DNA of 50,710 nt from the IMG/VR virus record IMGVR_UViG_2877285697_000009; one strand, 5' to 3'. The stretch is from a virus (Duplodnaviria > Heunggongvirae > Uroviricota > Caudoviricetes). The first letter of the stretch is position 1, and each line of letters begins with the position of its first letter. Made by a program: the position numbers and the translations under genes. The notes under the pieces were generated by a model, which was not told the origin of the DNA, did not search any database, and saw nothing but the letters and a program-made list of their open reading frames with translations. This document shows positions 43,572-44,273 of the stretch, piece after piece.

Positions 43572-43591
43572 CCCTTACCTCCTCATCAATT

Positions 43592-43615
43592 AGCCACCCG
43601 AAGGTGGCTTTTCAT
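43592..43615 (+). terminator. Rho-independent terminator downstream of cI
   Basis: Plus strand AGCCACC-CGAA-GGTGGCT followed by TTTCATT. Confidence 0.5.
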
Positions 43616-44090
43616 TACCCATCAAATTGCATATCTCGCAACAAAAATACTTGCATAATGCGCAACTTCATTTTATCTTTCTTTCCAGACCAACAAACAA
43701 GGTACTAACAAAATTTGGTTGTAACACGGCGTATGGCACATGCGTCGTTAGCGGTCTGGGGACGTTAAAGGGGACAATCCACTCCTTGCTCGGGCAAACA
43801 AACCAGGTAGCCGGAATGTGCAAGTCAATGATGATGCTGATAAGACGCCTAACCAGCGTGGCGATTCGGTTTGACGCCTGGGAAGAGACCTGGGTGCAAC
43901 GATGAGGGCATTTATGGAACCGCGACAAAGTATGGTGCCGTAACTGGCTAAGTGCTCTCAGCGTTGTGGTAATCCGTGAAATGGCGCGGCGGTAAGTATG
44001 GCGGGGTTATTCCTTCCCCGTTGAGGACACCGGGTTGTCAGGTTGACCATACGCTTAAGTGACAAGCCCACCACAACAGCCACTGCTTTG

Positions 44091-44137
44091 GCGGTACCAG
44101 TTTGTACACTTGCTTCCGGCTGGTACCGCTCTTTTTA
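44091..44137 (+). terminator. Strong hairpin terminator in the leftward leader (tL1-like)
   Basis: Perfect 10-bp stem GCGGTACCAG / CTGGTACCGC with 20-nt loop, followed by TCTTTTT. Confidence 0.55.
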
Positions 44138-44273
44138 CAAAACAGAGAAGAGCATCACCGGACGACGGGCTCATAACCCAATCCACCCGGGCGGCTGCCA
44201 CCGCAGGTGTTCTTCTCTGTTTTGTGGAGAAACCAACCGACCTTGCAGGGTCGATATGATGAGGAGCAGCAAA

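Follow-up and report, generated by a model that had tools for sequence, protein, structure and literature searches.

The 6S RNA of phage lambda is a promoter-proximal, terminated transcript that doubles as a small RNA (sRNA), and species 1 and 2 of phage T4 are stable RNAs co-transcribed with the phage transfer RNAs (tRNAs). The put RNA of HK022 and its relatives is about 70 nt long, has two stem-loops and is encoded at pL as well as at pR (PMC9378689). StxS is made from pR'-tR', where a phage promoter leads to a terminator-ended non-coding RNA (ncRNA) and the genes beyond it need read-through (PMC7547250), and the genes for the Hfq-binding prophage sRNAs STnc100 and PasD are located downstream of Q, not at pL (bioRxiv 10.64898/2026.05.13.724894). 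Here we describe a conserved RNA domain, which we refer to as A1, located between the repressor gene cI and the gene yfdP (positions 43572-44273, the 702-nt leader) of a Caudoviricetes sequence, IMG/VR record IMGVR_UViG_2877285697_000009, whose 50,710 nt are referred to throughout as the window.

The leader resembles StxS and lambda 6S in having a phage promoter that leads into ncRNA ended by an intrinsic terminator before the genes, and differs from them in its promoter, pL, in its modular RNA of ~450 nt and in having no antiterminator protein known. Like put in HK022 and HK639, A1 is non-coding and structured and comes directly after pL in lambdoid phages that lack N; unlike put, it comprises 168 model positions with five helices and a pseudoknot, is present in a single copy, and occurs also in phage P1 and in tRNA cassettes. 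The C4 antisense RNA of P1 and T4 species 1 and 2 are, as A1 would be if our prediction of its maturation is correct, structured phage RNAs matured from longer transcripts with or like tRNAs, although A1 has no sequence or model match to C4 and no antisense target for it was found in the window. A looser analogy is with GOLLD and ROOL (10.1101/2024.12.08.627333), which share with A1 a location in phages, adjacency to tRNAs and a complex conserved fold, but belong to different phyla, are ~600-800 nt in length and have no Rfam match here.

To characterize A1, we aligned 91 distinct sequences from 120 loci that were collected by scanning viral contigs with a conserved 16-mer. The elements of the fold are positioned in the window as follows.

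43718-43901, + strand: A1, conserved pseudoknotted RNA domain (covariation; covariance model)
43727-35 with 43739-47, + strand: helix P1
43756-59 with 43803-06, inner pairs 43764-66 with 43797-99, + strand: helix P2
43806-43824, + strand: invariant block GGUAGCCGGAAUGUGCAAG
43824-26 with 43860-62, + strand: helix P5
43828-44, + strand: variable hairpin
43845-48 with 43856-59, + strand: helix P3, loop CUAACCA
43851-54 with 43868-71, + strand: pseudoknot
43877-81 with 43889-93, + strand: helix P4, loop GAAGAGA

Across the 91 sequences, standard pairs occupy 95.6% of the cells of the five helices and the pseudoknot, vs. 29-46% in slid controls in which the 3' partners were moved by 1-3 columns. 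Both sides of the pair change in 15 of the 32 pairs (292 such cells, against 5-42 when slid), and the covariation score is 0.322, compared with no more than 0.076 in the slid controls. The pseudoknot is formed by the P3 loop (CACC) and a downstream GGUG, with CG in 70 sequences and AU in 21. G.U pairs constitute ~9% of the paired cells, and the fold therefore belongs to the + strand RNA. Between the helices are blocks that are invariant (GGCACAUG, AGCGGUC, GGUAGCCGGAAUGUGCAAG, GGCG, GGUGUGAC, and GGAAGAG). Since the first scan had used the invariant 16-mer itself, we rechecked it with two independent patterns: it was exact in eight of ten genomic matches, among those listed, and in 82 of 93 viral sequences found via a different block, with ten more having one mismatch.

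The covariance model built for A1 identified a sole copy in the window, at 43718-43901 (167.8 bits), with no second copy on the pR side. The Rfam check proposed in the first-pass annotation was also run, and no Rfam 15 family matched A1 with gathering or with lenient thresholds, either in the window itself or in any of 12 related loci whose A1 copies are diverse. A1 is a real, strand-specific, structured RNA family without annotation, and it appears to be new as a family; full-text literature searches found no description of A1 RNA. The suggestion in the first-pass annotation that the leader may encode a regulatory RNA is thus strongly supported and was, if anything, understated, given the covariation and pseudoknot of A1 and the terminator-ended domain in an STnc100-type position described below.

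Two observations concern the fold in individual sequences. The A1 of the window has a private A-to-T change at 43891 that produces a U.U mismatch (43879/43891) in P4, at positions where its close relatives pair (CCTGG/CCAGG). Downstream of A1 in one locus (L155, 1640-2200), and also in L042, L097, and L171, hairpins whose loop is GGAAAGAC or GGAAGAGAC occur in arrays, together with hairpins with the loop YUGACCA; these arrays repeat motifs of P4 and P3 of A1 and may represent repeated protein binding sites.

The leader has been given protein annotations in some phages, as the records of mEp460, cdtI, and PhiR carry "hypothetical proteins" over this region, and it contains open reading frames (ORFs) of 92 aa (+ strand) and 86 aa (- strand). 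These features are what can be said for the leader encoding one or more small proteins; a related proposal is that the conserved element is single-stranded DNA rather than RNA. However, the best reading frame is open in just 31 of the 91 homologues and none is open throughout, insertions and deletions among the homologues are far more often not multiples of three than multiples (249 vs. 44) and break the frames, and neither ORF matched a Pfam family. Furthermore, the conservation pattern is explained by the covariation of paired columns, and the G.U pairs, the sense orientation and the exact junctions with tRNAs all indicate RNA. We consider either proposal extremely improbable. The first-pass annotation had described the stretch from the end of cI (43571) to the start of yfdP (44274) as ORF-free, and it is borne out in that none of the ORFs there is conserved; with the frames broken and the Pfam search empty, no conserved gene for a small protein was found in the leader.

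A1 is followed in the leader by five further modules.

43896-43967, + strand: LS1, long helix closing a variable insert (43896-43914 with 43949-43967)
43966-44077, + strand: B domain, multi-branch fold closed by GUGGU/ACCAC or GUUGUGGU/ACCACAAC
44091-44136, + strand: T1, intrinsic terminator with a perfect 10-bp stem (44091-44100/44120-44129), 19-nt loop and tail UCUUUUU
44137-44225, + strand: LS2, long imperfect hairpin with 25-nt arms (44137-61 and 44201-25)
44238-44253, + strand: small hairpin CGACCU-UGCA-GGGUCG, directly 5' of the yfdP ribosome-binding site

The order A1-LS1-B-T1-LS2-small hairpin recurs in many unrelated loci, in which the sequences differ and the stems are compensated. 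Folding of the leader gives z = -3.2 on the + strand vs. -1.5 on the - strand. Matches in phage records split the leader into blocks that travel separately, and while some part of it is found in 4768 of 5426 complete Escherichia coli genomes, most of it is found in 999. Parts of the leader occur up to nine times per E. coli genome, with a median of two.

A1 together with LS1 is present in 1831 of the 5426 E. coli genomes, at unannotated sites that are either chromosomal or located on P1-like plasmids. Beyond E. coli, a scan of genomes with a 16-base gapped pattern, in which chance matches predominate and which was therefore screened with the A1 model, gave at least ten model-confirmed matches in at least nine assemblies of Enterobacteriaceae. 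The genera represented are at least Citrobacter, Kosakonia, Phytobacter, Kluyvera, Escherichia (E. whittamii), and Superficieibacter, with a diverged copy in an Enterobacter metagenome-assembled genome; this range is a lower bound, and all A1 matches listed fall in Enterobacteriaceae or their phages. In every case A1 is on the sense strand of an early or a tRNA operon.

The association of A1 with tRNAs is precise. ARAGORN identified a tRNA-Arg whose start coincides exactly with the end of A1-LS1 at 26 of about 126 A1 sites, and a tRNA(CAT) that ends 7-16 nt before A1 in 17 of about 126, each on the same strand as A1. In phages of the phiV10/TL-2011b type, A1 is located in a small + strand island between late genes, and the cassette is a closed RNA operon consisting of a promoter, A1, LS1, tRNA, a hairpin, and the terminators T1 and T2 (U8). 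The two terminators, one with eight U, face convergent late genes. In phage P1, A1 fills an unannotated gap between trnI and ban, adjoining a tRNA-Ile within the C1-controlled ban operon, 2.4 kb from the promoter and with no terminator before ban; this copy is without LS1, B or a downstream tRNA. Conversely, the A1 covariance model finds no A1 in SfII, Lys8385Vzw, F1055 or HK022, although SfII and Lys8385Vzw retain T1 and LS2. A degenerate stub of the 5' end of A1 is all of the domain that is retained in SfII (L001, 2630-2665).

Based on these contexts, we propose that the stretch between cI and yfdP is an early, pL-driven ncRNA operon with an A1 product that acts in trans, a reading to which we assign a probability of about 0.45. 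It is preferred because A1 is built into stable-RNA operons with exact tRNA junctions and because the phiV10-type cassette is closed by two terminators facing convergent late genes. Transcription would proceed rightward (+ strand) from pL, a repressor-controlled early promoter, through A1, LS1, B, T1, LS2, and the small hairpin in that order. T1 is expected to end most transcripts, throttling entry into yfdP and the early-left genes, and on those transcripts that read through, LS2 and the small hairpin would form a structured 5' untranslated region for yfdP. The precursor may be cut at the LS helices by an activity of the RNase III type and at the junction between A1-LS1 and B by one of the RNase P type, as at the 5' end of the tRNA in phiV10-like phages. 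Processing of this kind would free A1 as a stable RNA acting in trans, which would bind a conserved component of the host soon after induction or infection, presumably in an accessory host-takeover or counter-defence role, while B and T1 would yield an STnc100-like sRNA. A1 looks accessory because siblings with the T1-LS2-gene layout that are without it are functional phages. That A1 exists as a discrete RNA species is a prediction from comparative sequence analysis.

Several points weigh against this proposal. LS1 is a possible RNase III or other processing helix, but at ~18 bp it is short for RNase III. The Rfam model for STnc100 (RF02076) gives no match in the leader, B included, at E-values up to 10, and the fold of B is without covariation support, as the alignment is too invariant and its mEp460 row is a different domain. 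When the window was searched for sequences complementary to the invariant block of A1, just the block itself was returned, and hence no antisense target. Lastly, the pL-proximal position of A1 and its mutual exclusion with putL would fit a cis-acting element at least as naturally.

The last point leads to the main rival, which corresponds to the N-independent antitermination suggested in the first-pass annotation. Here A1, once transcribed from pL, would work in cis as a processive antiterminator consisting of RNA alone, in function an analogue of HK022 put, whose read-through of terminators depends on the zinc-binding domain of the RNA polymerase beta' subunit; A1 would bind the polymerase and carry it past T1 and later terminators in place of N. 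Of 100 distinct contexts in which the sequence extends far enough upstream, 57 have a gene for a cI-type repressor (helix-turn-helix, HTH, and S24 domains) ahead of A1, invariably on its strand, and in 49 of those 57 it is within 450 nt; many immunity types are represented among these repressors, with A1 directly downstream of the repressor gene and pL. A1 was found in none of 100 put loci and put in none of 179 A1 loci, and the two share the pL-proximal slot; indeed, in an Enterobacter prophage (L141) with HK022-like operators and promoter, A1 starts where putL starts. A sense-strand terminator is found within 1.2 kb downstream in 84% of contexts vs. ~56% of controls, by a crude scan that misses tails of four U, and in some cassettes a second terminator also precedes the next gene. 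The leader is also present in mEp460, a phage in which no N is annotated and whose source collection has been described as Nus-dependent (PMC11893012). The long invariant single-stranded blocks of A1 would also suit binding to a conserved host enzyme.

The lack of other known devices is also in its favour: no N-like ORF, boxA or put element was found by searches that covered the leader, positions 41000-45000, and 3-kb scans. The statement in the first-pass annotation that there is no recognisable N gene holds up, the leader having no conserved ORF, Pfam match or boxA, and a crude motif scan for Arg-rich ORFs, covering the 3 kb that follow A1 in 119 contexts, produced no convincing candidate. 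Arg-rich candidates in L047 and L298 were rejected as N, being 89-aa proteins with C-terminal Cys motifs encoded deep in the operon. The search for nut elements that the annotation had also proposed found no boxA (CGCTCTTTA / TGCTCTTTAACAA) with up to one mismatch at 41000-45000, near either pL or pR. As for boxB, the P4 loop GAAGAGA, on a covarying 5-bp stem, resembles that of nutL but has 7 nt vs. the GAAAA/GAAGA pentaloop. A boxA-like sequence in LS1 (AGUGCUCUC) was discounted, as it is base-paired and the compensated GUGCGC stands at its position in other classes. In two variant loci, L089 (~3330-3400) and L046 (~2220-2290), a hairpin and then an exact boxA of the rrn type (TGCTCTTTAACAA or GCTCTTTAAAAA) come after A1; these have no adjoining N-like ORF, and the next genes encode membrane proteins on the reverse strand.

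Other observations are difficult to reconcile with a put-like role. SfII, SfV, SfIV, and Lys8385Vzw are viable with the T1-LS2-yfdP layout but without A1, the window has a single A1 copy and none on its pR side, and the copy in P1 has 2.4 kb between it and the promoter and no terminator ahead of ban to overcome. In phiV10-like phages A1 stands first in a tRNA cassette that ends in a U8 terminator, where read-through into the convergent late genes would be harmful. The architecture of A1 is also unlike that of put, an alignment of which (73 sequences) shows the two-stem form, and neither HK022 nor HK639 gives a match to the A1 model. On balance, we regard the put-like mechanism as unlikely, though it is the strongest of the alternatives to a trans-acting A1.

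A narrower idea, that A1 belongs to the put family itself, was rejected, since the A1 model is empty on HK022, HK639, and 100 putL loci and the folds differ; the putL-like RNA annotated in the HK639 record is likewise distinct from A1. BLAST comparison of A1 and put yielded 9-mers at chance level, although this is a weak test, as BLAST also fails to match putL with putR. The motif ACGGCG...CAUGCGUCG is common to A1 (43727-43747) and HK022 putL (L003, ~6300-6270, - strand); it forms helix P1 in A1, and the loop of stem I and the start of stem II in put. This sharing could be due to chance or to a distant relationship.

The tight joining of A1 to tRNAs, or to domains that replace them, is also what would be expected if A1 and the LS helices were passive scaffolds for the processing or stability of the downstream tRNA- or sRNA-like domain, or provided insulation against Rho or RNases, with A1 having no function of its own. 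Consistent with this, long helices flank variable inserts and the untranslated arrays exceed 700 nt. The LS1 insert differs among other phages or holds hairpins that are T-arm-like, while the helix itself varies by compensation (GCGCAC/GUGCGC in the L013 class). However, a scaffold does not need invariant unpaired blocks of 16-19 nt and a pseudoknot maintained across phages of many genera, most phage tRNAs have no such leader, and the A1 of P1 is without LS1, B or a downstream tRNA to support. A purely passive A1 thus appears improbable to us.

With regard to the inserts, T-arm-like hairpins (GGTTCGATTCC) were seen in LS1 inserts or at the B position in L077, L100, L104, L144, and HK639 (L307, ~33700-33770). 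Because of these embedded hairpins, tRNA-derived pieces seem to have been recycled in these leaders.

The position of A1 upstream of an intrinsic terminator raises a further possibility, that it is a riboswitch-like or tRNA-sensing aptamer which decides termination at T1 and so gates the early-left genes. A complex pseudoknotted fold with invariant junction nucleotides would be appropriate for a sensor, and GUUG/CAAC segments are capable of alternative pairing. Against this, 190-700 nt of varying or swapped modules separate A1 from T1, the two showed no alternative pairing with each other, P1 and the tRNA cassettes show no logic of a regulated gene, and the downstream genes differ widely. We consider a sensor to be highly improbable.

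T1 itself was predicted in the first-pass annotation as a hairpin terminator just before yfdP, and its perfect 10-bp stem and U-run are confirmed. The stem covaries in relatives (UA to CG and AU to GC), and the terminator is common to SfV, SfII, and SfIV. Its 19-nt loop is atypically long for an intrinsic terminator, and our terminator scan missed T1 because the loop exceeds 8 nt. At its 3' end LS2, which begins directly after T1, has an invariant UUGUGGAGA, and pairing of this sequence with the T1 U-tract can extend the hairpin to 44131-44230. The apical internal loops of LS2 are conserved, and LS2 looks like a paralogue of LS1. T1, LS2, and the small hairpin are all conserved, and a few compensatory changes are seen among them. 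One pair of the small hairpin covaries (AU, CG, GC). The leader ends with the ribosome-binding site GAGGAG (44262-44267) and the ATG of yfdP at 44274.

The B domain starts exactly where tRNA-Arg starts in phiV10-like phages; nevertheless, ARAGORN and the Rfam tRNA model identified no tRNA or tmRNA in 43572-44273, so that B merely occupies the position of a tRNA. B has a layout like that of STnc100, being multi-branched with an 8-bp closing helix (GUUGUGGU/ACCACAAC) followed by an intrinsic terminator, T1. In SfII, Lys8385Vzw, mEp460, and others, B is replaced by an STnc100-like domain with which the closing helix (GUUGUGGUGAAU...CACCACAAC) and the terminator are shared, and in Lys8385Vzw a consensus promoter leads straight into this domain. 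B and T1 therefore resemble the STnc100/PasD sRNAs (RF02076) in position, closing helix and terminator, as seen through the domains of those three phages, but B is not recognised by RF02076 and the leader lies at pL. The equivalent of B in SfII scores 39.5 bits on RF02076, for which the gathering threshold is 47.

STnc100-like sequences were also noted at other sites. The domain in SfII (L001, 3007-3198) has a reverse-strand gene inserted ahead of it, and in P1 (L008) a stretch at 1571-1690, upstream of tciA in the ban operon, has a sub-threshold STnc100-like score of 33.4 bits. Elsewhere in the window (33780-34310, - strand) an STnc100 of 143 bits is directly downstream of tRNA-Met, tRNA-Arg, and tRNA-Arg. 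This order, tRNAs then STnc100 then terminator, is the same grammar as that of the pL leader.

Upstream of A1, the region that would control its expression has the following features.

42879-43571, + strand: cI, encoding HTH and Peptidase_S24 domains
42521-42781, - strand: cro
41977-42528, - strand: CII/CP76-family gene
43592-43609, + strand: cI terminator, a 7-bp hairpin then a T-run (terminator scan)
43627-43641 and 43651-43665, + strand: two operator-like direct repeats, TTGCATATCTCGCAA and TTGCATAATGCGCAA (TTGC-N7-GCAA)

Elements described as promoter-like in the first-pass annotation (TTGCAT...TGCATAAT) coincide with these repeats. We read them as OL operators overlapping pL and not as clean -35 and -10 hexamers, since there are two direct copies of TTGC-N7-GCAA and a third copy at 42844, between cI and cro. 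The paired sites are presumed to be OL1 and OL2. Our placement of pL is tentative and of low confidence, with a -35 at 43651-56 and a -10 of TATCTT at 43674-79; a scan of the + strand of the leader for the sigma-70 consensus gave no match, while related phages have a clear promoter, TTGACA-N17-CTACAT, at the equivalent position.

On the other side of the immunity region, the window contains a 383-aa ORF (40829-41980, - strand) whose relatives are annotated as peptidase or antirepressor. Its 5' half holds the Rfam C4 antisense RNA (41432-41519) and isrK (41544-41620). This ORF has probably been over-called, and the start of the real Rha/Ant-type gene is likely near 41370. Identity of A1 with published sRNAs was rejected by position: PasB is among structural genes, the 66-nt HnrS is among late genes, and EcOnc, AgvB, and AsxR lie 3' of pR'.

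A bolder interpretation, which we think rather doubtful but worth stating, is that A1 founds a new class of phage RNAs that act on a core host machine, and that the whole leader is a polycistronic RNA operon matured in the manner of rRNA and tRNA precursors. In one version, A1 would add to N and put a third means of early antitermination, one based on RNA alone; in another, it would be an early RNA that neutralises host defence or hijacks a conserved factor. The A1 covariance model makes the family directly searchable and testable, and many of the "hypothetical proteins" annotated over the leader are probably mis-calls. If A1 is what the sequence comparisons suggest, a complex conserved RNA has been missed in genetic systems that are among the most thoroughly studied, namely phage P1, prophages of the lambdoid and Stx types, and about one in three complete E. 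coli genomes, and its promoter would be the one that fires first upon induction. Such an RNA could bear on the early programme of N-less lambdoid phages and on the use of RNA by phages against the host, as well as on the origin of prophage sRNA genes, STnc100 and PasD among them, from leader modules.

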